NCBI GenBank assembly: GCA_030650425.1
Contig: JAUSED010000005.1
Coordinates: 14,932-78,931, forward strand
Length of the DNA: 64,000 nucleotides
Origin: Candidatus Omnitrophota bacterium
Lineage (GTDB): Bacteria > Omnitrophota > Gorgyraeia > Gygaellales > Profunditerraquicolaceae
Direction of reading: 5' to 3'
Each line of letters begins with the position of its first letter. The first letter of the stretch is position 1. The translations under genes and the position numbers were made by a program. Positions 42,001 through 63,000 of the stretch are shown here, piece by piece. A model generated the notes under the pieces. It saw only the letters and a list, made by a program, of their open reading frames with translations, searched no databases and was not told the origin of the DNA.

Positions 42001-45000
42001 ATTAATGAATATGAGGGGGATGAATCGTTAAAGTTGTTGAAAGTGCAGGGAGATTTAGAGAGGTTACCTACGGAGCAGAGGATCAATAGGCTGCGTATTC
42101 CTCTGGGATGGATGACGCATGCCTTGGACGATGAGCAGGTAGATGAATTAGAAAAAATAAATGGGAATAATAATTTAGAATTTTCTCAGTTAACCCCTAT
42201 AAAGGTAGATAAGCTAGAGGTTTTATTGTATGGTGACCGAAGACATCATAATATTATAGAAATTATTGAATTACAATTAGGTCAAGAAAACCCGCCTTTT
42301 AGTTTTGAGGAGATGTTAAAGAAGGCGCGGAAAAAATACCCGGAGGCATTTGAAACGACATCAACTTCGTCTTCTCCGCTTGAGATAGATGATGGATTCC
42401 GGGTATTGCCGGAAATTAAAGGAAGGACAAAATTAATCCGTACTAGTTATAAACGAACAAGAAACGGCTTTTACAAAGCCGCAAGTATTACTATTCCAGA
42501 TTATGATGTAAATGATCCCGTGAGTATTGAATCCACTGCCACTAGGCTTGCTATCGAGCTTAACAATAGGCTGGCAATCTTTGGCGGGGATAAGATTAGA
42601 TTAGCCGTAGACAAGAACCTTTTTAAGAGGGTTAATGAAATATTCTTTGGATTTGGAGCTCCCTGCTATTTCCAGAATAATGGATTTCTGGGTATGGTAA
42701 CATACTTGAAAACTGTTTATGAAAGCAAAGAATTTGTTATGGAACGCCTTGAAGAGGGGGCATTGGAGGATGAGTCCTTCAGTGAAGTGGAGGTTATCAA
42801 TTCTATTGATACAAGGGGCCTTTGGTTTGGGCTTGATATTGGCGGTTCTGATCTAAAGACTGTTGTAGTCTATGATGGCAATCGGATTCATCATAAGATA
42901 ACTAAATGGTCGCCTAAGACGATGATCGATCCGCATGCCGAAGATGGGCATATTCCTGTGATTAAAAATATTCTTGAAGGCGTGGTGAAGGAAGCTAAAG
43001 ATAAAGGGTGTGATACCTCTAAAGCCATGGGTATAGGTGTCAGCGTTAACTTGGCTGTAGTGAATAACAAAATAACCGGGGTTGGGCATTTAACCGCGGG
43101 ATTAAAGAACGCTGAACAGATTGACGTTGTTAGGGGTTTGGGTAAAATTTTAGAGCAAGAGTTTGGTTTGTCTGTTTATGTTATAAATGATGGCGACGCC
43201 GCTGCAATCCAGACAACCGTCGACATGGGGTTGCAATATGCTCTTAGTATCGCAGGCGGCACAGGATTAGCTATGGGTTATGGTTCAACACAGTTTTTGA
43301 CCGAGGGCGGTAAAATTATGATTGATGTATCCGAGACAGCGGCGGAACACGGTACAACAGGTATTAAAGGAAGCGCTCAACAATATATCTCTCAACGTGC
43401 TGTATTCAGGCTCGCAGCAAAGGCAGGTATTGGTTTAAGTAGCCTTGAGAGGGATGCCGATAAGCTAACTTATATGCAGAAATTATATGAAGAGAACGAT
43501 GAAAAAGCTGTTTTAGTTTTTAATGAGATGCCGAAATACCTCGCGGAGTTTATTAAAATTGTTTCAGAGATCATACGAGTTGACAATGTTGTACTCTTTG
43601 GGCGTATCAGTAAAGGTGCGGCTGGCCGTGACTACATAGATAAGGCTCAGGATATCCTTAACCAACGCGGTAGTAATATAAAGATTCTTTTCCCGAAAGC
43701 TCCTTATGGCGTTGACCAAGAGATTTACCTTGAGGTGGGGCAGGCCGTGGGAGCAACATATTATGCCAGCTATATGTTTCATAAGAATCTCAAAAGATTG
43801 AATGATTCTATAAATGTCAGCAGTCCTTTAGAAAGGATGACTATCGAAAAAGGTATTTTTAAAACCAATGATATCCGGGCTGCTCATGCCGAAAGTAGTT
43901 TAACAAAAGAGGTCACGCGGAGGATAGTCAGGGGTTTTGCGACTTTTAGTGCCGAAACCTTAAAGAAGAAAAATTTAGTATTGACAGTAGGCAGAGATGT
44001 GCGTTTGACATCAGATAAAATTCACAAGGATAGTGTAGAGGCTTTGAAAGCAAGCGGAGCCCGAGTAATTGACTTAGGGATAGTGACAACAGGGATGCTT
44101 TATTATTCTATACCCCTCTACAAGGCTGATGGCGGCATTATGATTACAGCAAGCCATAATCCTTATCATTACAACGGATTCAAGATGGTTTTGGGGTTAC
44201 GTAATACAGTTAGAGAAGAACTGGTTAGAATTCATGAGATCGCCGAAAGCGGCCGGTTTATTTCAGGAAGAGGCTGGAAGGAAAACAGGAATATCCTTAA
44301 CGAATACAGGAAATTATTAGAGAACGCATCCGGTGATTTAAATGGTTTAAAAATAGCGATTGATGTTTTAAATGGGGCAGCGGCTATCTTACCTCTTACG
44401 GAGATATTTGAATCTTTAGGCGCTAGGGTCATAATTATCAATGGCGAAGCGGATGGTAACTTTCCTAACTGCGTGGACCAGTCTCCCGATCCATCCCTAT
44501 TTGTCAATCGCCAGAATCTTGTAAACATTGTTAGGGAGAAGGGGTGTGATGTGGGCATTGCTTTCGATGGAGATGCTGATCGCTTGGTGTGCGTAGATAA
44601 TACTGGAGAATATATTTCAGGCGATATTGTTTTGGCAGTGTTAAGCCGGGATGGGCTGATTAAGAATCCGGGGGGAGTTGTGGTTTTTGATGCAAAGTGC
44701 AGCTTAGCGCTTACTAAAGTAGTGGAGGGGATAGGTGGCCAGGCTATTCGCTGGAAAACGGGTTTTTCTAACATTAAAGAGAAAATGGAAGAAACAAATG
44801 CTGTTTTAGGCGGAGAACAGTCAGGACATTTTTTCTTTAAGGATCATTATAATATTGATGATGGAGTTTACACAGCCGTTAGATTTTTAAGACTTATCGC
44901 TAAAGCAAAACAGCAGAATAAGAGGGCTCACGATTTTGTTTATGAAATACCGCATTTTCCTTCTACTCCGGAACTTAGATTTGAGGTTACCGGCGATTCT

Positions 45001-48000
45001 CCCGACGCGGAAAAACATCGTATTATCAAAGAGCTTAAAGAGTATTTCATCGGCCAAAATTATCCGATCGATGAAACGGACGGCCTTAGGATACTTTTCC
45101 AAAACGGATGGGCTTTGGCCAGGGCTAGCGGTACACAACCAATGATTATCTGTCGCGTTGAAGGAGGGAATAAGATTTCCTTGAGGACTAGCCTTTCCAT
45201 CTTATTTAGGAAACTTCGAGACTATCCCCGGATAAAAATAGGCCCTTGGAATGCTTATTTGGAAGAGCCCAAGGGATTAGCTAGAAGAATTGATTTAAAC
45301 GATCGTAATTTTTCTCTTAGAGAAACTGTTGGACAGGCGTTGCCTCTAGAATATTATTATCAGACAAATATGGAAGAGTTTGGGTTTAGTAAATACGTCC
45401 ACACTGAATATCCTTATGTTGGGCAAACAAGTTATTGCTTGGGGGGAGAATTTTTAGTGACTGAAGAGAACAAAGCCGATTATAAGGTGATTTATTTCGG
45501 AAAGATAAACAATCCAGATGGGCGCTACGAGGCAGAGATTTTGATTTACTACGCGGTAGTAAGTCATGCGATTCACATTGTCATAAAGGACGCAAGCAGA
45601 GATAGTTTTATTTTTGGGAGCAGTGCGAAGCGGGGCGAACTGGATTGGGATAAGGCTATGATTATTATGTACTTAGGAGAGGGTTTCAATGTTAAAAATG
45701 TGACGCATAAGGTAACTCCTATGGGGATGTCACGTTCTATGATAGCGATTGTTATCGAGGATGCGCATATTAGTAGATTTTTACCTGAACTATACCGGAT
45801 TTTTCGGATTCTTCTTGGGCTTCCAGAAGTCAATGAACAGACCAGAAGGGATGAGAAGATAGATAGCGCTATTGTTCCTTTAAGTTTAATCGTTAAAGCT
45901 AATGAAAATCCCGGAGATCTTAACGAAGATGAGATTGAGCGGGTCAAATCTTTTGTTTCTTATAAGAGTTGGGCGCTCAAGAGGATTGGGTTGGATACCT
46001 TAAAGAGGTTGCGTGGTGTAGGCAGGGTCACGGATAGCGACGTGGAAAAGTACGACAACGCAGGCCTAATGAGAAATGCTAATGAGGATTTATTACAGAT
46101 TGATAGATTGTTAAGGAGCGATAAGAAGTTATTGAACGAGGCTTTGAATAATTTAAATATACAGGCTGGTCCTGTTAAGCAGATGGAGCTGGAATATTTC
46201 GAGAGAGGGAATAATAAACAGGTGTATGTCAAATTTTGTGACGAAGAATTACCGACTATGGCTGTTTCTGTTATTCGCTATGGCAGCTTGGGAGTGGAAT
46301 TCAATAAACTGGCCATCATTGAATCGATGAGGCTCTGGGAAGACTTATCCGGAAATAGCATAGAAGAGATCGTGAAACTTGGCAGTTATCGCCTTATGGA
46401 AGATTATCGCCCTCGTTTTAGCGATATCAGCTTTTTGCCAAACGCCAGATATGAAGGCTATATCGATGTGAGTAGATTTATTTACAACAATATTGTTATT
46501 GTTTTCAGGGAATTTGCCGAAGGACGAAATTTGAAAAAGGTTTTAGATGATCCCCATGTTTCAGAAGCCCAAAAACATCTAGCGTTAGAGTCAGCCATTA
46601 GGACATATTTAAGGTTCTGGATAAAATCTAAGAATAAGGAAGGGCAGAGGCTATTTATTGGTGATCCCACGCCATTTAACATTGTTCTTCTTGAGAAGGA
46701 AGAAGGTTATTCCGGGAAGATCATTGATTTAGATGGTATTCAGGTAGTTAAGTCTCTTGAGGATTGTTTAACGATTCTTTTTAACGTTGGTTATGGCCGG
46801 AATACGATTTTAAAGATTGCGAAAGAGGTGAAAGATGCCGGAAACGTTAGTTCTCCCGTATCGTTAAGACACCGGATATATATAACAAGCCTTGGAGGAG
46901 GTTCAGGGCCCCAGAGACTGGCCAAGGGTATTATTCGCTATAACTGTTTTCTTTCTAATATTATAACCGTTTTTGATAATGCTGGGAGTACTGGCATTAT
47001 GCGCAGGGCTTTAGATATTCCTGCCGTAGGGGATTTACGCAATAGGCTTGTTACCCTGCTGCCTGAAATCAAAGAAAACAAAGTAATAGAAACGATATTC
47101 AATTATAGGTTTCCCGAGGAAAGAGAAACTAGAAAAAATAATGAAGAACTAACGGAGGAGTTAAGAAAAATAATTAAAATTAGTGAAAAAAGTTTAGGGA
47201 TAAGAGTGCCTAAAGTAAAAAAAGAATTTTTGCAAGGTTTAATAGAATACTTTATTCAGGAAAAGATTAAAAAGGAGCATGGATTCAGATTGTTTGAAGC
47301 GAATGTGGGTAATATCATCTTAGCGGGTAGATATTTCAGAGAGAAAGAAGATTGGGTTTCGATTATGAAAAAATTATGCGAGCTCTTTGGCGTAAATCGA
47401 TATGCGAAATTGATTCCTGTGAGTTCAGAGAATTTGGATATTGCCGCGCGTCTTGAGAATGGAGAGATTTTTTACGGAGAGCATGAGATTGCTTTTCGGC
47501 CAGATCAGGAAGCGAAGATTAAGGAAATATTCTTTGTTAAAAGAGGTTCACAAGAGAAAGCCGATTTACCTGAAGCCACAGAAGAAGCCTTAAATGATAT
47601 TGGAACCGCAGATATAATTATTATTGGCCCCGGGAGTATAACTAGTTATATCCCTGTTTTGTTAACTCGTGGAATTGCGGGAGCAATCAGACAATCTCAG
47701 GCGGCTAAGGTTTTGCCGGTCAATATTTCTTGGTATAACTTTAGAGAAGGCTTTGCGGAAGCCAAAGGATTAGCAGCTAGTGATATGGTGAGAATGGCAT
47801 TTGAATCGTTAAGAAACGCGGATGAACAGCCTAGTAATAGGATTAGCGATTACATTCAATATGCTTTATTGAATCTTCCAGTTTCCACTCAATTCTATCA
47901 TATTCCAGCTGATCTAGACAATATTCGCGCAATGGGGGTAGAGCCAATCGTTTCTAACTTTGAAGATGATTCTACGCCCGGTTATCATAATTCAGAAAAA

Positions 48001-51000
48001 ATCGCCAAAGCAGCTACAGAAATATATAAGCATTATCTTAATAATCGGACAGATAAGCCAAGTTCGCCTGTAGAATATAAAATTATTCCTATTGGTTTTG
48101 CCGATGATATTTTACAGATTTTAGACAAATTAAATATTAAAGGCGGTAGTATTGAAATTTCAAATGGCAAAGATTGGCTTACTAGAGAAGTGTATGAATT
48201 TGTGGATATATTGGTTCAATATCTCTTGTCGTTTGAGGATGTGAGGACTTTGAGATATTGGAGGGATGATTTAAAATTTGCCTTAAGGGAGGCGATCGAT
48301 AACTCGATTGCGCATGCAAAGGGAAAAGTTTGGATAATCTGGGGAGTAAAAGAAAACAAACTTATTTCTGAAGTTAAGGACGAAGGAGATAAAAAATTTG
48401 AATTGAATACTATAAGCTCGGGGAAAAGAATTTTAGACAAATTTTCTGATCCATTTTCGGATGGCAAAGGTATTGGGCTTAAAATTATAAAGAATTGTGG
48501 CGCGGATAATGTATATATTGTTCTTCTTCTGGATAGTTCTGAAAAAATTATTGGGAATAAGCTTGTTTTAGAGAAATCATTCTTCAGCTCTCCGGTAGAG
48601 GCAGCAGAAGGAAGGATGCAAATCTTGACTTATAGAATAAGTTATAACAGTAAATTTGAGGCAATGGTTATTACTGCTTCAAGCGCTATTTTACTAAAGC
48701 CAAGCGGAGCTAATTTTTATCTTTTGGATCAGCCTATCGCAGGCTCCCCGCTTAAAAATAGATTTACGGGGCTTGCTCCGCCTACGAAGATTGATCCTGC
48801 CGCAGCATTTAATCTTTCCAATACAGATGTTTCTTACACAACTTCTTCTTTACCAATAGGTTCCATAAACGCTCTACAATACCATTACTTAACTTTAGAA
48901 TCTGGAGATAAGTATTGTGTTCCCGGAATTGCCAGAATTGGCGTCTCCTCTTCTCCATTGTTATCTTCGGAGATATTGGGCTTAGTAGTATTATTATTTC
49001 TATTATCATCATTCGTAGTCGCTTGCGTAGTAGGATTGATTTATAAACTTATATCAACATTAGTATTGATTTCTAAACGTATATCAAAGAATGGCACAGA
49101 AGAGAGATCTTGGATAGAAGTTGCAGTAGAAGAGTTGGAAAACATGCCCATATTCCCCGTATACAAAGAAAGAGAAATAGAGGAGCTAAATAAACGTATG
49201 ATAATTTTTGGGCAGCTATTGAGAGAAAAAGAAAGAGGCATAATTGTTATTAGTAATTTGAGGCTGATAGGAAATGATTATTATGAAAGTAACCTTAGCT
49301 GTATGTTGGATAAATATATTAGGAATAATAATTTAGAAACCAATTTGCTTATTCAACTCGTAACCTCAGATGTTAAAAGTTTTGCAAGAGTTTCTTCAAG
49401 GATCTTACGTGAGAGAAGCGAGATTAAGCGTAACAAGATAGCTGTAGAGTTAATAGAAGATTTATCGAGGATGCCCAAAAGATTCACAGTGTTTGCTGAT
49501 CTGCATTCTGGAGGAAATACATCGATTGATAATGTTTTATATTTTAGCAAATTGGAAGAACTAAAGAGGCAGCTTACCGCTGAAAATTACATCTCTAGTA
49601 GTCCTTTAGTAGGAGATAATTCTTCTCTTCAAAGATTAAATATAAAGTTAACTAAGCAGGCCTTATCTCGGGGTAGAGTAGATTTAACCAAAATATATGA
49701 TTCTAAGCTTAAGTATTTTTTAAGATTCTTGGTTAAAAATAATCTTGAGGATATAATCCTTATGGGTGGTGGTGTCAGGGATATATTCTTTGATTCCGAG
49801 ATAACCGATGCGGATGTAAGCATTAAATTATGGCTAACTATAGAGGAGGTAGCCATTTTTGATAGATATCCGCGTTATCCCGCTAACTCAAGAATATACC
49901 ACCGCGTATTAGAGTTAACTGAAAAATTATCCTTGGCATTGGGAGAAGAAGAAAATAGCCTGCTATGTTTTAACCACAACCACAAAGTGTATTTTAACGG
50001 CTTAGAGGTTCAGTATGCCGGGCCAAGGGAGGTTACTGCTGTAAGCGGGCAAAAAGTTGTGATCAACCGTTTCACGGTAGATTCTACTACAAGAAGAGCG
50101 TTTACCTATGTCTGTGGGGCGTCTGCACTTTTAATGGGCCTGGATTGTTTTGGTAATTTATACGGGTTTTATCAAGAAGCGCTTGAAGATTTACTCGCAG
50201 GCAGGACAAGATTAATTGGCAGACATAATTTTACCTTTGGTATGTTATTGCGTATGCTTAGGCTAAAGCATCAATACGGACTTAAAATACCTAAAGATGA
50301 CTGGGGTTTTTGCCTTGAAGAACTACATAAATGGAAGCAGAGTGGTTTGTCTAACCTTATTTGGACTCCAGTAATAGATGAACAGTTAGAAAAGGTTATT
50401 TATAAAGCGCGAGATAAAAAGTCGGCAGAAAAGGAGTTACGCTTTTTAGGGGTAATAGAATTGGCTGCGAATTTGAAGAGAAGTTCTAGCCCTCTTAAGA
50501 CAGGCGCATTGGTTGGGACGAGGTTTGAGCAACAAGTTGCCCGGTTGATGGGCGTGGGGTCCCTTAGCGAAACCCTACGTGGTATTGATACTAGAACTAA
50601 GGAAGAATTAGCTAACGGAGCTATAGGGCAGATTAGCTCGTTCTTAGCGGCAAAAGGCCTTTCTCCGAATGAGAATAAAGCGGAATTAGCCAAACAAGAA
50701 GCTGCTGAAGGGGTAGAGGAATTAATACTTGACGTAGATAAAATTATGCTTAATCTTCGTCCCAGCTCGCCGGTAATAGGTAATGTTGGCGGCTTAAATG
50801 AAGAGAGAATAATCGAAGAAGACGCGCGGAGCATATTACATGATGCGCCTAGCTTCATAGGAGAAATAATCTTGAGGATATTTAACGATAAATTAAATCA
50901 AAATGATATCCGCAAGATGGATATTATTTCTATAGGCGAGGGCGGCTATTCTACTGTATTTAAAGTAACCATTAATGATAAATATGCCTTTGTTCTTAAG

Positions 51001-54000
51001 ATTACGGGTGGGAAAGGAAGGGAATTATTTCGTTCTGATTTGGAAGACAGGTCGGATTGCGTGCACATGATAAAGCTGTATTCACGGGATCACTTGGCTG
51101 TTCAGGGTAGCTGGAAGCCAGTAGAATATAAAAATAATTATTGGTATTTAAATACCCAAGAGTTCGTTAATCCTATTGATGCTAAAGAATTAAGCGAAGA
51201 AGATGGCCTATCGATTATCAAGGACACAGTTAAGGCCTATTTTATCACTTGCGGAATTGATGAGAAAGGATGGAGGAAAAATAAGTTACCTTATATATTC
51301 TCGTTCCCCATAGACGTAAAGCTCGCAAATGTAGGTTTTATTATAAAAGAGGGTAGAAAGATAATTAAAATATTTGATATTGATTTGGCTAGAGATTCCA
51401 CTCCTTTTAGGATTTGGCTTGTTTTAGGCACATTAATGATACGAGCTTGGAGTAATAATAGCGCAGAGGCGATATTTAAAGGGATAGAAGAAGCAATGGG
51501 CAAGAAGAGTGCTAACGAGTTTATAAATATAGCTTATAACGAATATACGGATTTACTTTCTGAACCAAACTTTACAATTAAAGAAAAAGAAGAGGGAGAC
51601 ATTGAGATGTCCGAAACAGTACCTGATTCTTACGGTAAGCATACCCGTATAACGAAGGTATCTAAGCAATTGATAAAATGGTTTGTTGAGCGATCAAGCT
51701 CGCCGGTGGGCAAATTTAGTATTATTAAAGGCATGGATGTAGATAGTAGATTAGTGGATGGAGTAACCAATATTAATTACGCTATAGGTAATCAAAGATA
51801 TGCTTGTTGGGTGGATGATAATGCAGCCATTATTAGTAGAGCTAGCGTTTACACTAATCATACCGTGATTGCCTATCTAGGAAATATAATAATAGGTTAT
51901 ACGGTGTTCGGGCCGCTATTTCATTATCCTATTTATGTATATCAAATGGCAGTTATGCCGAGGTATCAAAGTAGAGGTATAGGAGCAGGGCTATTTAAAA
52001 AATTAGTAGATTTTTCACAAGCCCAGAATATTCATAAGATAACCTGCCATGTGAGTATTAATAATCCCTCTGGAGAATTTTACTTTAAATTACCTTATAG
52101 GCTCAAAGAAATCGCTGATATTGAATACGTTCCAGATGGTATAGCTCCCGATAGTAGTCAGATTCTTAGAGTTGAATATAGGATAGAAGCTTCAGGCAAA
52201 AATGCTTTAAAATCCAGCTCTCCGGCGGAGAACTACCGAATTCACAATAGAAGTAGCCAGGAGCCAAAAGTATCTTTACTGTTTTCAGCAGTTACTACTA
52301 TTGATAAATTTACGCGGAATCACGTGTTTAGTATTATCGTCCTTGGTGTGTTTGCTTATGTATTTCTTAAACTGGGATTGTATCCGGATAGGATCATCAG
52401 CGGTAAAGCAAGCGGATATTTTGATATCTGCCTGGAAGCTGTCAAGGCCACAGTTCTTAATAAAGAATTTCTATGGAAAACGGGCCTTGTTTATCTTGTT
52501 TTCGGCACGCTAACGGATTATTTAGCAAAGCGCGCAAACAGAGAGACGTATTCATGGAAAGCGTTTAAAGGGGTTATAAAATATTCTATTCTAAAGGCCG
52601 TTTTTGTCTTTGTGTTCTTTATTGCCATTGCCGGGTTGGATAAATTTTGGCGCGTAATCTTCTCAGGAATTTTGCTTGGTTTTATCCTCTTGAATATCCG
52701 CAAATGGATGTTCTATTCTGAATATCAGGAAAAAAAATCAGAGGCATTGAAAAAGCGGACATCCGAGATGTATTGGCTGACGCGGATATGGATTTTTGGC
52801 CAGAATTTTATTGTGCAGGTTTTGTTTCCCATAGAGCGTAGGGCGTTAGCCAATGCCATAATTTCACAGCTGCATTCTTTGTACAATAGCTATGGATTGC
52901 ATGAACAGGGACCGTCTCTTATTAAAAGAGAGCTTTTGGTAACTAAGATAGAAAGCTCGCTATTTATAAGATGGCTAAGGTATGCCCAGAAGGCCTTAAA
53001 TGATTTCATTGTAGTTAAGTTTTCGCGCGCGAAGGTTAAATTTATTAATAAGTTCTTTGGCAGGGCTTGGGATAATTCTGCCGCACTCATAGTCTTTGGT
53101 TCTATTGCGCCATTTGTTATAGCGATTGATGCGCTGCGTAAAAATAGTTTTCTGAAGAATAAAGCAGCTGGGATCTTACAAGATCAACGGGGGAAATCTG
53201 TCGATCTTGATTCTGGCCCCTCCAGCTCGCCGGTGGAGTTAGAAAAAGCCAATAAGCAGTTTATACTTGAACAATTAAAAGAAGCTTTCTTGGGAGAATA
53301 CAATCGTTCCTTTGAAGGAACGTATGGAGTGGAATTGATAAATTCTGTTTTTGATATTGTTACACTTTTACAGGATGAAAATGTTATCCACAAAAAACAA
53401 ACAGCCCATAACCTACTCTTCACCAAAACAGAGCAAGGTTTATCAAAAGTCTATATCTTTCCCAGAAAATTCCAGACCCCTAGTGAACTTGGTACTGGTG
53501 TCGCTTTTTTTGAATTAGGCGGTGAGTTGATTGCTTTGATCAAGGAACATAAAGACATCCCAGCAGATAGTAAAATAACCAAAGCCTACGAGGATATTAC
53601 TAGCGTAGAAGAACTTATTCCAGAACTCGAAAATACCAGCTTGCCTGAACAGGAATTAAAAAATTTGAAAGAAAAGGTCGTTAAGAGGTTTATTGCCAGC
53701 TCACCGGTGAAGAAGATAATAAAGATTAACTTACTTCAGCAGCCCCTTGAAATCTTCTATGGAGATGGCTGCTCCTTTAAGAATAGCACGCAGGGTTCCG
53801 GGTTTGATAGAGCTAGAACCATGGAGAGGAACAACAACTCGGCGGGTCAAGTCTTGAGAATGGCCGGGATGGGCAAATTATCTTCTTTCATAGTTTCTAT
53901 ATATAATGAAACTGCCTCTTTTGCGTTACGTATAGCTTCCTCCAGAGTTTCTCCTTGCGTAGCGCAACCTGTCAAGCTGGGTATAGTTACAGAGAATCCT

Positions 54001-57000
54001 CCAGAAGGCTCTTTTTCAAGTATTATTTTAAATCTGCGTAGCATTTTTAACCTCCTTCTTGATAACATAGAGTATAACCTCTTCGGTAAAGTAAGTCAAG
54101 CCAAAACTGCGGATGCATTATTTAGCGTCCAATTTGCCCATAGCTCGCCAGTGGAGCCAAAAGGAACAAAATCGGCCTTACCTTATCTAATAAATATAAT
54201 AACTTTTGAGAGTAAACTTGGGGCAATGGTGATTGTTGCTTCAAGCAGCATTTTAGTAAAGCCGGATAGCAAGGCAAGTTTGTATCAAAAGAGTATTAGA
54301 GCAAGCTCTTCGCTTAAAGGTATCCACACAGGGCTTTCTCCCCCGGAAAGAATTTATTATACCGCCTCATTCAATCTCTCTATCGCAGATATTTCTTCCA
54401 AAACTTCCTCTTCGCCAATAGGTTCCATAAACGGTCTACAATATCTTGTGTCCCCGGAATTAACCCTTATGATTTTAACAGGCCTTAAATTTATTGTAGG
54501 GATATTGGGTATAGTAGGATTGATTTTGCTCTTTAAGATAATAAAACGAAGATATAAGCGTATAGAAAAATACAGAATTGAACATTTCTTTGCCCGAATA
54601 GATAAGGGAGATATCCGGGGAAAGGATGATTATGATAAATTGATAAAAATGATCAATAAAGAGATTTATATCTCGCCATCCCTTTTTCCATCCCCTTTCT
54701 CTTATAAAACATATTTCCACGAGGCAGCGCTGCAGAGATTTGGCAAATTCATAGGCTTTTATTTCTCCGAGATGCTTGGTTCTCTTACGTCTTTGAAAGG
54801 AAGGGGAGTCTCAGAGCAGAGGCATATTTTTAGAGGATACGCCTTCTTACCCATAAATGTTTTATATCGTGTTTTATCTAGTGATGAATATAAGGGTATG
54901 CAGAATATAGCTTCTAAGCATATGGAAACTTTGCTGGGAAAAATAACGGATATAGAGCCCTTAAAGATGCTGGTTAATTGTTACGATGGCCCAATTTGCG
55001 GTATGGTCGGTTTTCGTCTTGGCAAAATAGCAGATGTATCACTTATTCCTCTTATGGCAACTTGGTACAATAGCTGGGGAAATGAGCGTATTGCTGCTGC
55101 TGAAGCCTTAGGGTCTTTGATAGGCAAGATTATAAGCGATATGAATATTGATTATTTAGAGATGGTTTTGATGGACCCTCGACTTGGAGACTTTCATGAG
55201 CCTGTTTTTGGCGCTCTCTGTCTCGCGCTTGGGGAGAAACGCAGAGAGAAACATATTCAAGGAGAAAAACTGGAAAGGTTTGCCAAGCTTTTGGCAGGCT
55301 TTATCAAGGGTAAGAAAGGTGAGGTTACAACCCGTGCCGCAGGCTGTTTAATCCAATTAGGAGAGCCTGCAATGATGATATATCTTCAAGACTTGACAGG
55401 AACGAAAACTGGTATGCCTGAACAACTCCCTATACTGCCTGATATAATCAAGTGGGCTACCGAGAATCTTCAAGATATATCTATATTAGGAAAGCTTTTG
55501 TCTGAAGAGAGATATACCGGGGATAATGAGGATTTAAGAATAACAATTATTAAAAGCTTAGCTAAGATAGCTTCCCCTGAGGCTTTTGGGACTATGATTG
55601 AGTTTTTGGATAGAAATATAGGTCCCGGAGGTATCAATAAATGGGAAGTCGCGGAGGATATGTTTTTATCGCTAGTCCGCCGGAAGAAGGCAGAGGATAT
55701 GGTTTTATCGTTAGCCCTTAAGAATGTAAAATTATTGCCCTTTGCATTAGTTTTGCTAGGAGCAACAGCTGTTCGTAGTATTATTGTTTGGCGAAAGGTG
55801 ATGAAAAACCTTGGTGAAGGTTTAATAGATAGCATAGTGAAGCAATATGAAGAAGCGCCTAAAAATGAGCGCTTAAAAGTTGAAATTGTCAGGACCTTGG
55901 GAGAGAATAAGGTTAGGGTTAAAGAAGCGATTGATGTGCTTGAGCGAGCTCTTGAGGAGAAGTTTCCTTCCTTCCTTTCTTTACATGCCGCCTTGGCGCT
56001 TTTAGAAATCGATCCCTGCCGCTCCTGCCACTACAAGATGAAGTTAGAAAAACGTAATTTTTTAGATTCAATTTACTGGCCACGAAGAATTCTTACGGCC
56101 AAAAAAGGCAAATATGTTTTACAAATTGTAATAGATGCTAGAGGTGTTTATCGAATATTTAGGCCTGGCCAAAGACCAAAGAATTTTAGAAAGATACCCC
56201 TGAAATTAAAAAGCATATTTGATAGGGGTAGAGGGCTTATAGAACCAGCGATTGCCCCTGAGAAAAAATCAAGAATTGACGAATTCCTGGAGTTGGCAGC
56301 GCAATTAAACAAGAAAATTTACTCCAGCTCGCCGGTGGAGGCAAAAGCGGCTGGAAATCAGGGAGCCAACTGGCGGCGGGCCAATTTTTCACCCGAGACC
56401 TCACTGCTCTTTGCTATCTTTCCACTCCAAGAGCAAAAGAGGGCTCTTAAAAGATACAGGGCCTTAATGCGGGATGCGGCCAAGATTATCCCAGAGTATA
56501 ACAGGCCAGAAAAAAATGTAGACAGTTTATCCATCTCATCGCCTGTCAATGAGTTAGAAAACAAATCCGCAACGATAGGCCGCTCCAGCTCGCCGGCGGA
56601 AGAAAATAATTTGATAGAAAGGTTATTTCCGGTAGGCGTCTTCTCGAGTATCTACTCCATCGATGACAATGCTCCCGCTGACAAGATAGAAACAGATACG
56701 ATATTTCCCAACTCTAAATCTATGAGTGGCGGGAGGCAAGTTAACCAGAGGCTTTGCGAAATAAAGTGGTTTACCGGAAAAAATGTAGAGGTCGATCTTT
56801 TCTATGACGCGTTTCTGCAGTGGAAGAGAAAGCTTTTTAAATTCCCGTTCGCCGGCAGGAGTGAACTCAACCTTGGTAAGCATAGCAGGATTCAGGACAT
56901 CCCTAATTTATGCTTAATTTTATCAAAGGAGACCAATCCTAGCGCTTGGGCCTCCTCAATTCCTCTCTTTAATCTTGAAGCTAGTTTAGGATTAATCGGC

Positions 57001-60000
57001 AGGCGCTCTTCAATCCCATCAATAAGCCAGCCACCAGGATTAGAGAAGACGTATTCTTTAGCGGGAGCAGACTTCTCAAATCTGTCGTCAAACGCGCAGA
57101 GTAGATCCCACAGGGAGCCTGTATCAAAGATAAAATATTTCGGGGCTCCATTTTTATCCACAACGGCCGCGGCCTTGAAGTCCTTAAGTTCCGATTTCTT
57201 CAATTTTTTAGGAATAGCCGCGAATTTCTCAATGGGTTCTATTTTGACAGACTCTTTTGATGACTTAACTAATGATTTTGATCTCATTTCTTCATCCTCC
57301 CTTATTTATAAACAGTATAACACATTCTTTTTCGATCTGTCAAGCCGGATATCGTTAACGAATAATAGGGGTGGTTCTATTTTAAGTAATAAAAATCGCT
57401 CCAGCTCGCCGGCGAAAGAGATAAGATATGATGCGGATGAGGCACAGGATGTATCTCTTGGCCTAAAGCCAATAAAAGCTGTGGTTGAAGCTGCGCGGAG
57501 CCTCATTAATGGATTAGATAAAAGGACTATAGGATTAAGTAAGGTTAAGGGAGAGTCTGTTATCGTGCAGTTTAAAAATAAAACAAAGCAGGAGAAAGTT
57601 TGGCTTAACTTTGGCACAAAATTAAGAGATTTTGTTTCGCTGATGGAGGTAAGATTACTTTCAGATCCAGATATTAAGGTAAAAGTCTTGATCAATATGT
57701 TTAGCAAAGACAGAAAATTCTTGCTAATTTTTTATACTAATGACAAGGTTTATTTCTATGATACTTATGGAGAGATAGGGTCTTTAATTAAATTAGATAA
57801 GAAGGCACAAATATTGGGTCTTGAAAAGTTATTAAAAAATAAAGCGGTAAAAAGTTTTATTGATTACGTCCTCATTGGATATATTTCTCAACCAAAGTTT
57901 ATCAATGAAATTATTAAAATTTATCCTGCCCGTCCCTATAAGGCTAGGGGGGGTACAGAGCTTCGTTTTGATAAGACGGGCTATGAACTTCCTGATAGCA
58001 AAGAGACAGAGTTGGGAAGGATTCTGGAAAAAGAAATGGTCATCGTAACAGATAAAATAGCGGAGGGTAAAATATTTACTATTTTACTTGAAAAAGATTC
58101 GCTTAATAAAGCCGCTCCACACTATCTTTTATTTTTATCCCTATGCGATAGGGTACAACTTTATAACGAAGCCGGTTTTATTGTTGAATATATCAAAGAC
58201 GGGAAAAATCACGGCTACAGCGATAACCTATTCATCAACACCTTTCTTCTTAGTATCGCTTTTAAGCAAGAGTCAGCATGGAAGACTTTAGATTTAGGCC
58301 GCCAAGCGACGCACGCGATTGTTATTGGCGGGGCAGATAGAGGCTCTTTAACAATTCCAACTACAGGTATAACTTTAGAAGCATTGAATATTCGTAAAGA
58401 CGGCGGGGCGTGGATACCTGTTAAGCGGATAAGAAAAGGCGATATCATCTCGGGAGTTTGCGGTTTAGGGGGAGGCCAGTATTATGTTGACGGTATAGGA
58501 GCGCCTTTAGGAGACAAAAAATTCCCGGCTATTCTTTTAGAAGGAAAATTAAATCTTCCAAGTGTAATCCGCTGGCTATCGCAAGATGGCTCCAAAGAAA
58601 ACATCCCTGTTTCAGAATTTTTGAAAGAACTTTTTGGCAGCCGAGCAGAGAACGGCCAGAGTAAAAAGATTATGTATAGATTAGAAAAATCTAAATCCAA
58701 AAGGCCGGTTTATGATAGAAAAACAGCTCAATGGTTGGAAAAAGTTGTTTGGATCATCGTTGATTATGGCAGTGAAGAAGAATCAGGAATATATACATTG
58801 AATAAAGTCGTTGATAAGTTGGTAGAGATGAAAGGAAAGTTTAATCCCCTCTCTGTTTATATCCTTAAAGATTTACGCAGGGCTATTATTGAGCATCTGC
58901 CTTACGCAGCTTTAGCCCAACAGGAGGCAATTGAACGCATTCTTTCATTAGCTTTGCCGCAAGTGAGCCGAGAATTAGCCGAAAATCCACAAATGCAAAA
59001 ATGGATAGGAACGGCTATCCGCGGTTTATGTCAGGCAATAAAAATTAACCTAATCTCAGCTTTAAGACTACATGCTTTATTGGCAATCGAATATTTAATG
59101 GTTACAGAAGATGTCAAGCAAGAAATAAATGGGTTAATAAAATCCCGCGTTCTTAATGAAAACAAGGGAAATAAACTTCGAATTATAGATACGGCTTTGA
59201 TTTTAACAGTAAGGCTAAATTCAAGCCCGATTCTAGCCCCGAGAAGCACTTTAGTAAAGCCGGATAATAAAGATTATTTACTTCATCTAGAAAGTATTGA
59301 GGCAAGCTCTTCGTTTAAAGATATCCACACAGGGCCTTCTCCTCCGGGGATAAATTATTATCTCGCCCCATCCAATTTCTCCGCCATAAATATTTGTTTT
59401 ATAACTTCTAGTTCACCAATGGAAGAGAAGGCAGATAATTCTGAAAATAAGTATCGTGCCCCCGGAATTACGCGCTCTAGCTCACCTTTAAAACGAAACA
59501 ATCGCAGGCAAGATAGAACATACATACCATCATCTTTAGAAAGATACGGATATAATTTGGGCCAGTATTTCGATAAGTATTATGCTAAATACCTGTCCGG
59601 GGGGATTATTGCTAAACTTGAGGAAAACGGTTATTTCGAAACCCTTTTTGGTACGTATGTAAACACGCCTACGCCTAATTATATAGAACTGGTTAGTGAT
59701 ACAGAGCTGCAAAGAAAGATTGGCCTGCTCTACCTGAGCGGTTTGGGATTCCTGATTGAAGATGGGGTAAGTTTTGCCTGGACAGAGGGGAATTTTATAC
59801 ATCCGATATCAGCAAGGCCTCTTAATATAAAATACGCAGAAAGCGAAGATTTATTCCTTAGAGTAGAGCTTATATTGCAGAATATGCCTTTAGCTCAGCA
59901 GGATGAGTTTATAAAGATGCACTTGGCGCCGATCTTGTGTAAAACCCCGGAATTCTTAGATAAATTGATTACCTTAATTTTAAATATGCTCGATATAGAA

Positions 60001-63000
60001 GATAAAGAAGGATTGATTAAAGATTTAGAAAATTCCTATATTGTTGTTAAGGAGAGGAATTTACCTAAACCTTCGATGTATATTTTGCGGGAATATCTTT
60101 CTACCTTAGTCTTGCATGAAATTGGAGAATGCATCTTTTTTGTCTTACCCGACACTCTTAAGGAAGAGTGGAGGACTTTAGTTACCAGGGAAGTCCTTCC
60201 TTATCTTGGCATCATATATCTTAGGGGTTATGGTAAAGCGATTATACAAAGAGCGCAGGAAATATCTGCACAAGGTGCATTAAGGCTTGGCAGATTGGAA
60301 GAGGAGTTCTTTGCCGATGCCTTTACAGTAATCTTTGACAGGAGGAAGAATATTTTTGCAGAATTTGGAGAAGGGATCCGTGACGAATGGGAAGAGTTCA
60401 TGATTAAGAAAGTAAAGCCATACTTAATCAAAAAGCACAACTCTGGCAAGAATAGCTGGCAAGTTGAAAGCGGAGAGATCATTAGAATCTATAGAAATTC
60501 AGCCATAATTGAACCGAATGATGTAGAAGAGTCATCGAGGGAATCTTCCAGCTCACCGGCGAAGCAATCCTCTTCTCCAATCGAAGGCTATGCCGTTGTG
60601 ACGGATGGTAAAACTGATTCTGCCGCCGAAGAGGGCAATCCGGGAGCACATTGCTCAACAGCTTTAATCTCCAGCTCAGCGATGGGTATAAGCCGCAGAA
60701 GCTTTATTAAAAATAGCTCTTTGGTTTTATTGGGTCCGTCGAGATTAGCCTCTCTCTTGCGTTATTTAAGCGCGTTATCTTTGGCAGGCTGTGGCGGAGG
60801 CGGCGGCACGGAAAACCAGGCCCCTGCGCCTCTTCCGGCCCAGACTGAACTGGAGTGGATAAAGAGCAGGGTTAACCCCTCAACATTCCTTGCGGAAACT
60901 TACCAAGGCCTTTCATCAACAGACCTCTCCTTTAAAAAGTCCTTCATTTACGACCAAGGTTTGGCTATCAGGGCCTTAGTGGAATTTGGCGGCCCGGAAG
61001 AGTTTGCGCTGGCTGAAAAGATGATTGATGCAAACGGAAACGGAAACGTAGACAGTTTATCCAGCCCATTGTCTGCCATAGACTTAGAAAACAAATCCAA
61101 AATGACAAGCCGCTCCAGCTCGCCGGTGGAGAAACAAGGTGAAAGATTAGAACTGATCCTAACTTATATAGGCGATTATCTTTTACGCAGCAGCTCAAGA
61201 AATTCATTCGGAGATAGAATATCAAAGCCTTTGGCTTTGAGTACGAGAATGTCTTTGTCTAAGCTCACTAAGGGGACTTTTGATTCTGCAGCTAAGGACA
61301 GGATAAAATCATCTTCGCAATCTCTACAGATATCTAACTCGAGGCGGGTTTTGAGCTTATGGCTCTTGTCGTCAATTAACGCCACAAGTTCCTTTGCTTC
61401 ATTAGCGGGAATAAGCCTTTTAACCTTTGGTTTACTTAAAGTATCATTGAGCTCTTTTAGTAATTTCTCAGATACAATTAGCGTAAATTCCTCATTGATA
61501 AATGCGTTTAAGATAGGCCTGGTCAATGAGCTATTCATCAGCGCGCTTATCCAGATATTCGTATCAATGACAACCTTAAGCATATTAATTAGCTTTTCTT
61601 ACTTTCTTTACAATGCGTACAATTTCGTCGTTAGAAAGAACCCTGCGGTTCTTAATCCGCTTGTCGATTCTAGAGATGAGATTCTTAAAGCGCAATTGCC
61701 AAGTCTCCAAGTTCAACCTTCGGGCAATGATCAGTTTTTCTTCCAATGGAAGTTCTTCTATAAGATTCTCAACCTGCTTAGTATTAAGTTCCAAAGTTAC
61801 TTTAGACATGTAAAACACCTCCTATCATTAATAAACTACTCGTCAACAAATTATAACCCAATGCCGCCTTTGCGTCAAGTTTATAATCTTCAGAGGATTG
61901 TGAATAAAGAGGAGAATAAAGGTGACGGTTCTATTTATTTCCAGTATTTCCAGCGAGAAAATACAGACAGTTTACCTATCCCATCGTTTACCAAGGAGTT
62001 AAGAAATAAATCCGTAATGACAGGCCGCTCCAGTTCGCCTGCGGAATTGAGTTATAGATGGAGTTTATTTATAAGGATTAGGGAAGGGGCAGATTATTTA
62101 CTCAATATTTTAAGACAACTTTCAGCAGTTAGTACTTTAAATGGTAGGTCAGCAGAACGACGGGATAAAAAATGCCTATTTTCTGTTACCAATGCATCTG
62201 CGCCTGTATATTCTGAAAACGCGCCAATAAGCGCGTCTGCGGGCTTAAGCCCTAAAGTTTCATATTTTGTGCCTAGTTCAAATGGCACCTCAAAGTCTTC
62301 ATCAATTTTAGTCCAAGCATTGATGAGAAGTATAAATTCCTTAAAGGCTTCAGGCGTTAGATTATCGCGCACCTCTTCAATGATTAAGCGCAGGATTCGC
62401 ACGGTGATATCTTCTGGACGTTCTGCTATTTTTTCAATCAGTTTTTCAGAAGGCGGATATCTGACTGCGCCTAAGGCAAAGATGTATTCATTACTATCGA
62501 GAATGAGCCGCAAATTTTGCCTCCCAAATCTTTTCACGAGTTTTACGAATTTTCTCAATTATTTCTTGCTTGCTAAGACCCCGGCACGGGGAGCTGACTT
62601 TGGACATAAGTTGTCGAATCTTGTCGATGCGCTTTTTAACTTCTTGAATATTTTTTCTCATAATTCTTCACCTCTAAGTAAGGTTAACATACCTAAAAAC
62701 TTTAGTCAAGTGGTTATTACTAATGACTACTTCAGTCCTCTTAGCCGTGGTGCTTCGCCGATTAAGCAGGGTTATCGTAGCTTTGCGGTGGAAGCAGCAC
62801 CTTCTATAAAGAAAGATTCTGCGCGCAAAACGCCGTTTAGGCCGAGTTCAAGTAGCCCTCTTGGTTCTCTTGTTACAACTCTTGGCGGATATCATTATAT
62901 CGGGTTGCGCCAAAGAATAGGACTGGATGACCATTTTGCCAATGGGCCGCCTGCGGTAGATACCTCTAGCCTATCAAGGATTTTTTCCATAACATCTTCT

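Follow-up and report, generated by a model that had tools for sequence, protein, structure and literature searches.

A probable relic of a hicB-hicA toxin-antitoxin cassette lying antisense within a giant multi-enzyme reading frame of Omnitrophota

Long antisense overlaps in bacteria usually consist of a short novel ORF that arose within an older gene, and long antisense overlapping gene pairs have reportedly been found in E. coli O157:H7. The G-S-H motif of the HicA toxin has a catalytic role, and in intact relatives of the module described below hicB precedes hicA, the two genes overlapping by 4 nt. Giant multi-enzyme genes of Omnitrophota have been described (West-Roberts et al. 2023, 10.1101/2023.11.21.568195) and assigned to 'class 1' (Nielsen & Lui 2026, 10.64898/2026.06.07.730766). 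Neither publication mentions opposite-strand or nested genes or antisense toxin-antitoxin (TA) modules in giant ORFs, and no description of antisense TA nesting in giant genes was found in the literature searched. The discovery of giant genes beyond 20,000 codons is recent, and little is understood of how they grow, how they remain intact and whether they form one functional unit. In the sedentary chromosomal integrons of Vibrio cholerae promoter-bearing TA cassettes have been demonstrated to confer stability on the array (Richard et al. 2024, PMC13108822).

The window, i.e. the whole stretch of 64,000 nt analysed here, is open in frame +1 over its entire length, with zero stops in 21,333 codons and 752-2196 stops in each of the other five frames. 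The in-frame Pfam domains comprise GGDEF, REC, GT2, CBM30, LysM and two CofD, as well as GlgA-type GT5+GT1, ROK, PGM I-IV and GNAT. Being longer than the 10,000 codons required of that class and tiled with many distinct enzyme domains (PF08323, PF00534, PGM, PF00072, PF00480, PF00583) the ORF is of the giant multi-enzyme type, and its predicted domain set matches that of the published 'class 1 multi-enzyme' giants. The only protein homologs of the ORF were Omnitrophica proteins (P0001, P0002), and the closest relatives of the HicB encoded on its opposite strand come from Omnitrophota MAGs. Scans of the window for Rfam families and tRNA genes gave no match. The features discussed are collected in Table 1.

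Table 1. Positions of the giant reading frame, the hicB-hicA cassette and the other nested modules in the window
Feature	Position	Strand	Description
Giant ORF, frame +1	1..64000	+	At least 21,333 codons, runs off both window ends; multi-enzyme type
In-frame repeat AGCTCACCGGTGAA	53698..53711	+	Encodes SSPVK; brackets cassette, N-terminal side of giant ORF
hicA 3' remnant	53731..53874	-	48 codons (47 + stop 53733-53731), no start; PF07927 match
hicB (truncated)	53847..54044	-	ATG 54044, 65 codons + stop (53849-53847); PF15919 match, family alignments
Deletion junction	53862..53869	-	hicB codon ~60 joined to mid-hicA; DNA alignment and offset calculation
Shine-Dalgarno AGGAGG	54051..54056	-	6 nt upstream of hicB ATG; sequence reading
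hicB promoter	54071..54099	-	-35 TTGACT, 17-nt spacer, -10 TATACT; promoter scan
In-frame repeat AGCTCGCCAGTGGA	54142..54155	+	Encodes SSPVE; brackets cassette, C-terminal side of giant ORF
Candidate fourth module	56626..57305	-	RelE/ParE-like ORF 56626-56907 + upstream ORF 56895-57305
Second TA module	61179..61821	-	VapB-like antitoxin 61588-61821 + PIN toxin 61179-61598; both frames intact
Candidate third module	62094..62661	-	PIN-like ORF 62094-62558 + small upstream ORF 62494-62661

The original prediction described a hicB gene with a consensus promoter and an AGGAGG, and a start-less HicA-like frame overlapping hicB, the whole module and its promoter being antisense to an open +1 frame. 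All these elements were found as described, the overlap lying at the 3' end of hicB, and both genes passed their Pfam profiles (cut-offs 27 bits): the HicB stub matched PF15919 (HicB_lk_antitox) with 51.9 bits, residues 5-61 covering profile positions 1-57, and the HicA remnant matched PF07927 (HicA_toxin) with 30.2 bits, at profile positions 30-56 of 58 only. NCBIfam gave no match for either product, and neither the 65-aa nor the 73-aa HicB product had an identical sequence on record. Over 60 residues the stub is 80 % identical to the 73-aa HicB of Omnitrophota MAGs (P0003-P0005), and the HicA remnant is 79 % identical to residues 37-79 of the HicA of L002, a free-standing cassette located among housekeeping genes. 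The clade to which the cassette belongs occurs in Omnitrophota-type bacteria. The promoter motif by itself was not significant, 17 promoter-like sites being present in 4 kb versus 10.3 expected. It is homologous, in the same position, to the promoters of the related cassettes L002, L014, L015, L003 and L007; the hexamers of L002 are identical to those of the window, and L014 and L015 likewise have TTGACT/TATACT. The Shine-Dalgarno sequence is kept in related cassettes as (A)AGGAGG, and the homology with cassettes of other genomes extends from the -35 box through the hicA stop. No conserved recombination site was found at the cassette 3' end, similarity between cassettes ceasing at the hicA stop.

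The original prediction described only hicA as a remnant. This held for hicA, but hicB is truncated as well, having 65 codons compared with 72-75 in the intact members of the clade. Residues 1-60 of the stub are typical of the family and the final five (AILKT) derive from the deletion junction; they replace the last 12-13 family positions, including the conserved D-V-L-x-E-E-x-E-V segment, in which D63, V64, L65, E67, E68, E70 and V71 are each at least 90 % conserved. In intact relatives the GSH motif is situated 305 nt past the hicB ATG, a stretch that falls inside a deletion of 144 nt (48 codons, from offsets 326 - 182) in the window, with a microhomology of ~4 nt (ATCC) at the junction relative to L002. 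This one deletion took away the C-terminus of hicB and, with it, the start, the N-terminal part and the GSH motif of hicA, so the toxin is dead and the antitoxin truncated, and the operon does not contain adjacent intact toxin and antitoxin genes. Its length is divisible by three, which leaves the giant frame open. As the deletion hit both genes, the module is best read as a relic and not as an intact orphan antitoxin. We put the probability of this reading, in which a self-contained hicB-hicA cassette has left a relic antisense in a giant multi-enzyme gene, at roughly 0.8.

The prediction of an "orphan antitoxin or decaying module" was therefore borne out in its second part, the toxin gene lacking its start, N-terminal part and GSH motif; its first part became less likely because the same deletion also took the last 12 conserved codons of hicB. 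A working orphan antitoxin would be an expressed 65-aa stub that neutralises a HicA encoded elsewhere (anti-addiction) or represses transcription. The promoter, the Shine-Dalgarno sequence, the ATG and the open frame of 65 codons are all intact, and all invariant and near-invariant residues of family positions 1-60 are kept without decay. In the AlphaFold2 model of a full-length 73-aa relative the confidently predicted core (residues 8-54; three strands plus one helix) falls wholly inside the retained part, and residues 61-73 have pLDDT below 50. However, seven positions conserved at 90 % or more are gone, the 73-aa HicB family has no DNA-binding domain able to act alone, and no second hicA or hicB is present anywhere in the 64-kb window. 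The cognate toxin was deleted too, which removed the selective reason for keeping the antitoxin. A working orphan antitoxin is considered unlikely, at about one in eight in our judgement. The stub of the relic may retain some residual expression or function.

The original prediction treated the open +1 frame as a curiosity, and it is the recurrent nesting in giant ORFs that is the actual point of interest. Eight of the 11 distinct loci of the HicB clade (L001, L013, L014, L015, L016, L017, L019 and the window) are antisense, in one shared relative frame, within open frames of 963 to >21,333 codons, and the flanks of these nested loci are mutually dissimilar. Among 150 more distant HicB loci used as a control (from a second metagenome scan with a HicB alignment, mostly distant HicB) the longest antisense open frame had a median of 83.5 codons and reached 447 at most. 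The antisense position of this cassette family within giant ORFs is a recurrent, non-random arrangement. Six nested copies retain intact hicB, hicA, promoter and Shine-Dalgarno sequence, and L001 is a second decayed copy in which hicA was likewise lost by in-frame deletion. A 60-nt direct repeat of 92 % identity, its copies spaced in frame by 777 nt, flanks the L017 cassette and has the appearance of an insertion signature.

The nucleotides shared by the two strands were compared across the nested copies. The hicA sense frame demonstrated a pN/pS of 0.31 and 64 % amino-acid identity, in contrast to 1.15 and 30 % for the giant frame on the same bases, which indicates that selection acted on HicA and not on the giant-frame peptide; as the divergence may predate each insertion, this contrast is no proof of selection on the TA genes while nested. 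The third codon positions of the giant frame coincide with those of hicB, and relative to hicA it reads the exact reverse complement codon by codon. For the codon-aligned genes synonymous shuffling predicted 3.3-8.6 antisense stops and none was observed (P = 0.016 for the window hicA remnant, 0.012 to <0.0003 for the other six). In the six related loci with both frames intact the TA frame had the pN/pS of 0.31 and the P values for stop avoidance ranged from 0.14 to <0.0003 per gene, but the divergence may predate nesting. The antisense strand of the free-standing L002 is also stop-free, hence stop avoidance could in part be characteristic of the clade and not of the locus.

Other TA pairs are nested likewise, both in the window (a PIN toxin with a VapB-like partner) and elsewhere. 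The PIN toxin of the second module matched TIGR00305 with 88.2 bits and PF13470 with 65.8 bits, and its antitoxin resembles VapB15 (E = 3e-5), with a score that does not reach the curated cut-off. No stop interrupts the giant frame in this module, 5.2 antisense stops being expected in the VapB-like ORF (P = 0.0007). The PIN-like ORF of the candidate third module reached 21.3 bits against PF01850, under the cut-off of 23.6 (E = 4e-4). In the candidate fourth module the RelE/ParE-like ORF matched weakly to PDB 3g5o_B (Rv2866; E = 0.009), neither this ORF nor its upstream partner had a Pfam or NCBIfam match, and 0 antisense stops were observed versus 4.9 expected (P = 0.002). A further 79 minus-strand ORFs with 75 or more codons, all the others of this size in the window, were inspected by eye. 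The TA modules of the window are bracketed by a short repeat, whose 21-nt in-frame version encodes SSSPVE. SSP[VAIL] motifs beside the nested cassettes of other loci were inconsistent, and bracketing is established in this window only. Formation of an RNA hairpin by the 21-nt repeat was rejected, the Z-scores being -1.4 to +1.0 relative to shuffled sequences and the stem being lost in 2/5 copies.

It could also be argued that beyond ~53.65 kb the plus frame is an untranslated or decaying tail, in which the minus-strand TA genes are the sole real genes. No Pfam domain above the cut-off was found in the plus frame downstream of this point, the segment 54157-56625 had no homolog in 1.84 billion proteins and the segment 57733-61176 none in 5.8 billion, and past 52 kb the plus strand shows a weaker GC skew and purine excess, both of which are inverted at the TA modules. 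Nevertheless, ~3,400 more stop-free codons cannot be due to chance at 39 % G+C, the other frames having a stop every 10-28 codons, and the nested TA genes avoid precisely those codons that would create stops in the plus frame. The same pattern was seen at seven other loci, one of which encodes TPR domains upstream of the cassette in its giant frame, and singletons reportedly make up ~80 % of the long-protein sequence clusters of Omnitrophota. A decaying tail is accordingly regarded as improbable, more so than an orphan antitoxin. Finally, a chance or convergent resemblance to HicB and HicA within a plus-strand protein segment, with meaningless minus-strand frames, would agree with the frequent openness of antisense frames in coding DNA and with the most permissive, shared-wobble frame relation of the hicB part (P of no antisense stops = 0.54), but it is refuted by both Pfam gathering scores, by the 80 % identity to annotated HicB proteins, by the homology of promoter, Shine-Dalgarno sequence and gene order to the free-standing L002, and by substitutions that spare the TA frames and not the plus frame.

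For the relic of a nested cassette the following history is proposed. The cassette would have entered, or been exchanged into, a giant ORF already present. Only copies in an orientation and frame adding no stop would have survived, which would account for the one relative frame of every nested copy. While intact, the cassette would have been a normal addiction module whose own promoter drove expression counter to the giant gene, and the giant protein would simply have borne ~150-200 unconstrained residues from its reverse strand. In the window the toxin would then have been lost in the sole tolerated way, by in-frame deletion. What is left would be a linker within the giant protein, perhaps together with a residual antisense promoter. 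Both the insertion and its age are deduced and not observed, since no ortholog of the giant gene was found, either carrying the cassette or lacking it; the part of the giant ORF beside the cassette (window 52501-53700) had no relatives in genome or metagenome contig collections.

A broader and tentative reading, which we consider possible but rather doubtful, is that Omnitrophota giant genes are lasting hosts of whole, functional TA operons on their reverse strand under dual coding, protected from deletion, with the SSSPVE repeat as the module junction. The cassettes may stay functional under a dual-coding constraint that also keeps the giant frame free of stops across them, and by analogy with integron arrays they may guard the giant gene against deletion. 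The 21-nt repeat could serve as a frame-preserving junction that joins cassettes and forward gene-sized blocks in the window, and giant genes could gain or exchange modules through it.

Promoter-bearing TA operons lying backwards inside giant genes at eight or more unrelated loci, with a codon choice that keeps the giant frame open, provide a concrete marker of the absorption of foreign DNA into giant ORFs. As nested addiction modules they offer a testable idea for the resistance of giant genes to deletion, and they supply a naturally occurring collection of long antisense overlaps in which the direction of constraint is clear. They also fall into a blind spot of annotation: of the giant ORF and the TA genes, gene callers retain one and never both, so surveys of either would miss the arrangement.

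Compared with known systems, the cassette shares with type II HicAB modules (hicB-first, short single-domain HicB; PF15919/PF07927) the family, the gene order, the sigma-70-type promoter and the Shine-Dalgarno sequence, but its toxin has no start and no N-terminal part, its antitoxin lacks the conserved C-terminus, and it is nested antisense in another translated-looking frame. Like the Omnitrophota giants, the window ORF exceeds 10,000 codons, contains starch synthase, GT1, PGM, REC, ROK, GNAT and HATPase domains, has homologs in Omnitrophica only and is in large parts unique in sequence. As with integron TA cassettes, small TA operons with their own promoters are scattered along a very long array whose other parts share one orientation. 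Classification as an integron gene cassette was rejected, no attC-like or conserved cassette end being present and no integrase domain occurring in the scanned frames; moreover, the "array" here is one continuous reading frame and the cassettes must therefore also be stop-free on the reverse strand. As in long antisense overlapping pairs, the opposite-strand frames share several hundred bases and the constraints are visible in codon choice, but here it is an old conserved operon with its promoter that lies inside a far larger ORF whose local peptide is unconstrained.

The original prediction described a hicB gene with a promoter and an AGGAGG motif, overlapped by a 3' remnant of hicA lacking a start codon, and all of these elements were found (see the table). 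The first frame scored 51.9 bits with the Pfam profile HicB_lk_antitox (cut-off 27) and the second 30.2 bits with HicA_toxin (cut-off 27), the latter match being limited to profile positions 30-56 of 58; no NCBIfam model matched either frame. On its own the promoter match lacks significance, with 17 promoter-like sites seen in 4 kb vs 10.3 expected. Since related cassettes in other genomes carry identical hexamers at an equal distance from the start codon, the promoter was inherited and did not arise by accident.

Residues 1-60 of the HicB frame are 80 % identical to annotated HicB proteins of 73 aa from Omnitrophota MAGs, and the final five residues do not align with the relatives. DNA alignment with four related cassettes revealed a single 144-nt gap extending from about codon 60 of hicB to the middle of hicA; the His codon that follows the junction is 182 nt away from the ATG in the window and 326 nt in the intact cassette of the related locus L002, an offset that confirms the gap size. 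The deletion removed the C-terminus of hicB, including D63, V64, L65, E67, E68, E70 and V71 (at least 90 % conserved among 23 relatives), together with the hicA start and the entire N-terminal part of HicA with the G-S-H motif found in every intact relative. The search for a second hicA within the 64-kb window gave none, nor was another hicB present. An orphan antitoxin or a decaying module had been proposed: decay is confirmed and an intact orphan antitoxin is not, since one deletion hit both genes. In the AlphaFold2 model of a full-length HicB relative the moderately confident core comprises strands 8-11, 17-20 and 28-31 and helix 34-54, and residues 61-73 are of low confidence. A truncated antitoxin that still functions is possible but less likely.

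Coordinates of the hicBA relic, the other toxin-antitoxin (TA) genes and the repeats, in the window and in loci (L numbers) carrying HicB relatives of the same clade
Locus	Feature	Position	Strand	Remarks
Window	Promoter TTGACT-17-TATACT	54099-54071	minus	promoter scan
Window	AGGAGG	54056-54051	minus	
Window	hicB frame, 65 codons	ATG 54044, stop 53849-53847	minus	
Window	hicA-like frame, 47 codons + TAA	TAA 53733-53731	minus	no start codon; overlaps hicB end in another frame
Window	RelE-like candidate pair	56626-57305	minus	weak PDB match only
Window	PIN toxin	61179-61598	minus	TIGR00305 88.2 bits, PF13470 65.8 bits
Window	VapB15-like ORF	61588-61821	minus	E = 3e-5, below cut-off; overlaps PIN toxin gene
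Window	PIN-like ORF	62094-62558	minus	21.3 bits, slightly under cut-off; small upstream ORF, pair 62094-62661
Window	Repeat CGCTCCAGCTCGCCGGTGGAG, encoding (R)SSSPVE	13 sites within 48586-62045	plus	frame +1
Window	CGCTCCAGCTCGCCGGTGGAG, example sites	53218-53238, 56320-56340, 56581-56601, 57397-57417, 61111-61131	plus	
L015	DUF433 + DUF5615	3501-4138	antisense to giant frame	intact, above Pfam cut-offs
L019	Nucleotidyltransferase + HEPN	10790-11544	antisense to giant frame	intact, above Pfam cut-offs
L016	BrnT + CopG/BrnA	2884-3438	antisense to giant frame	intact, above Pfam cut-offs
L017 (nested)	Direct repeat	9770-9829 and 10547-10606		60 nt, 92 % identity; spacing 777 nt, a multiple of three
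L002	Direct repeats	4077-4207 and 4797-4927		131 nt, 73 %; also a 32-nt repeat
L003	Direct repeat	9763-9789 and 10458-10484		27 nt, 89 %

Frame +1 of the opposite strand, expected to be open across the module, proved to be stop-free throughout the window (21,333 codons) and open past both of its ends, the other five frames having 752-2196 stops each. The domains encoded in this frame are GGDEF, response-regulator (REC), GT2, CBM30, LysM, two CofD, starch-synthase GT5+GT1 (GlgA), ROK, phosphoglucomutase (PGM) I-IV and GNAT. The set is that of the 'multi-enzyme metabolic' class which Nielsen & Lui (10.64898/2026.06.07.730766) describe among Omnitrophota proteins exceeding 10,000 residues, and it is likewise in keeping with the giant genes reported by West-Roberts et al. 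(10.1101/2023.11.21.568195), who drew on proteome data from Velamenicoccus archaeovorus. Just upstream of the cassette, at 52240-53275 and 53380-53649, the + frame shows homology to a pair of partial Omnitrophica proteins. Downstream of 53.65 kb it stays open for 3,400 further codons and encodes no Pfam domain above cut-off; for the segments between TA modules no homolog was detected, either for 54157-56625 (823 aa) in 1.84 billion proteins or for 57733-61176 (1148 aa) in 5.8 billion proteins. A 30-nt tandem repeat (1.9 copies, 88 % matches) lies within the giant frame at 49031-49087. On the + strand, both GC skew and purine excess are strong as far as about 52 kb and weaker over the remainder (52000-64000).

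At each of 172 loci with HicB relatives, the length of the longest antisense frame open across the HicB match was measured, the clade being defined by at least 63 % identity. The cassette is nested, i.e. antisense inside an open giant reading frame, in 8 of the 11 distinct loci of the clade (the window, L001, L013, L014, L015, L016, L017 and L019), with frames of 963 to more than 21,333 codons that are mostly bounded by contig ends only. The relative frame is identical in all eight, and the flanks show no mutual similarity, the cassette alone being in common. The antisense open frame has 136 and 124 codons in L003 and L007, respectively, where the cassette is located between large opposite-strand genes, and 210 codons in L002, where it is free-standing among housekeeping genes; 150 more distant HicB loci, serving as controls, gave a median of 83.5 and a maximum of 447 codons. 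Six nested loci (L013-L017 and L019) retain an intact hicB, a full-length hicA (HicA scores of 66.2 bits in L017 and 66.9 bits in L013), the promoter and the Shine-Dalgarno sequence. L001 has also lost hicA, owing to a premature stop combined with an internal, in-frame deletion. The giant frame of L017 encodes TPR domains upstream of the cassette.

In L007 (7051-20182) the cassette is placed between consecutive opposite-strand genes of 959 and 3224 aa, the downstream one in the same relative frame as in the nested cases, and in L003 (105-20219) among very large opposite-strand genes of 1140, 692, 1929 and 5895 aa. This arrangement looks like a split or not-yet-fused form of the nested state.

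Other TA genes and candidates are nested antisense in the window and in L015, L019 and L016, where the extra pairs adjoin the nested hicBA on Omnitrophota-type contigs. The purine excess of the + strand is below 0.5 exactly at the nested TA genes and candidates of the window and at the hicBA relic. Local inversions of skew and purine excess at 54.0, 56.8, 61.2-61.6 and 62.4-62.8 kb correspond to minus-strand TA genes.

Homology between the cassettes extends from the -35 box to the hicA stop, and no conserved end element was found across them. The direct repeats of local sequence flanking the cassette in three loci look like long target duplications and speak for insertion into a frame that already existed. 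The window cassette has a copy of AGCTCRCCRGTGRA (encoding SSPV) on either side, at 53698 and 54142. This repeat is present in 13 copies vs 0.81 expected, all on the + strand, in frame +1 and within 48.5-62.1 kb, and its 21-nt version in 5 copies vs 0 expected. Repeat copies bracket every TA module of the window and likewise flank forward-oriented blocks, examples being the GNAT domain (51697-52216) and the stretch at 52240-53275, whose similarity to the Omnitrophica protein P0001 ends at the repeat motif. In the translated window there are 47 SSP[VAILM] motifs, where composition predicts about 4. The repeat does not fold into a stable hairpin, and consistent bracketing by it was not seen at the other loci. 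A module junction, a cleavage site or a former intergenic repeat are its candidate roles.

The giant frame and hicB have their third codon positions in common; relative to hicA, the giant frame is the exact codon-for-codon reverse complement. The two frames were compared on the same bases across 15 pairs of intact nested cassettes. The hicA sense frame showed a mean amino-acid identity of 64 % and a pN/pS of 0.31 vs 30 % and 1.15 for the giant frame, although the divergence between copies may be older than each insertion; the substitutions thus spared the toxin protein and not the giant-frame peptide. The stop expectation was obtained by synonymous codon replacement drawn from host usage. For codon-aligned genes 3.3-8.6 antisense stops were predicted and 0 occur in the giant frame. 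The probability of no stops was 0.016 for the hicA remnant of the window, 0.005 and 0.012 for hicA of L017 and L019, 0.0007 for the VapB-like ORF, 0.002 for the RelE-like ORF, 0.0003 for HEPN and <0.0003 for DUF5615. Little avoidance was needed by genes whose frame shares the wobble positions (P 0.14 to 0.86). The stop statistics contradict a weaker alternative, an untranslated tail of the giant frame. The reverse strand of the free-standing L002 cassette is stop-free too, from the promoter to beyond the hicA stop, so a stop-free antisense strand may be a property of the clade. A likeness to HicB and HicA arising by chance is refuted, both frames having passed the Pfam cut-offs in the profile alignment proposed with the original prediction.

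The best-supported reading is that a mobile hicBA addiction cassette was nested antisense in a giant gene and later inactivated. Such a cassette would be tolerated because it adds no stop in its orientation and frame; an in-frame deletion would then have inactivated it, leaving relic DNA that may now be an unconstrained linker of the giant frame.

Neither HicAB modules nor Omnitrophota giant genes are new, and the window feature itself is an ordinary relic. The giant-gene papers of West-Roberts et al. and Nielsen & Lui do not mention genes that are antisense, nested or on the opposite strand, and a full-text literature search for TA modules lying nested or antisense within giant genes returned nothing relevant; within the literature searched, the architecture and its recurrent nesting appear undescribed. 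Annotation keeps one overlap partner and hides the other, which conceals the arrangement; the public record of L001 (7090-13485, minus strand) calls a 73-aa hicB and omits the 2,132-codon antisense frame. A functional analogue of the nested TA modules is found in very long integron arrays, which are stabilised by TA cassettes with their own promoters (PMC13108822).
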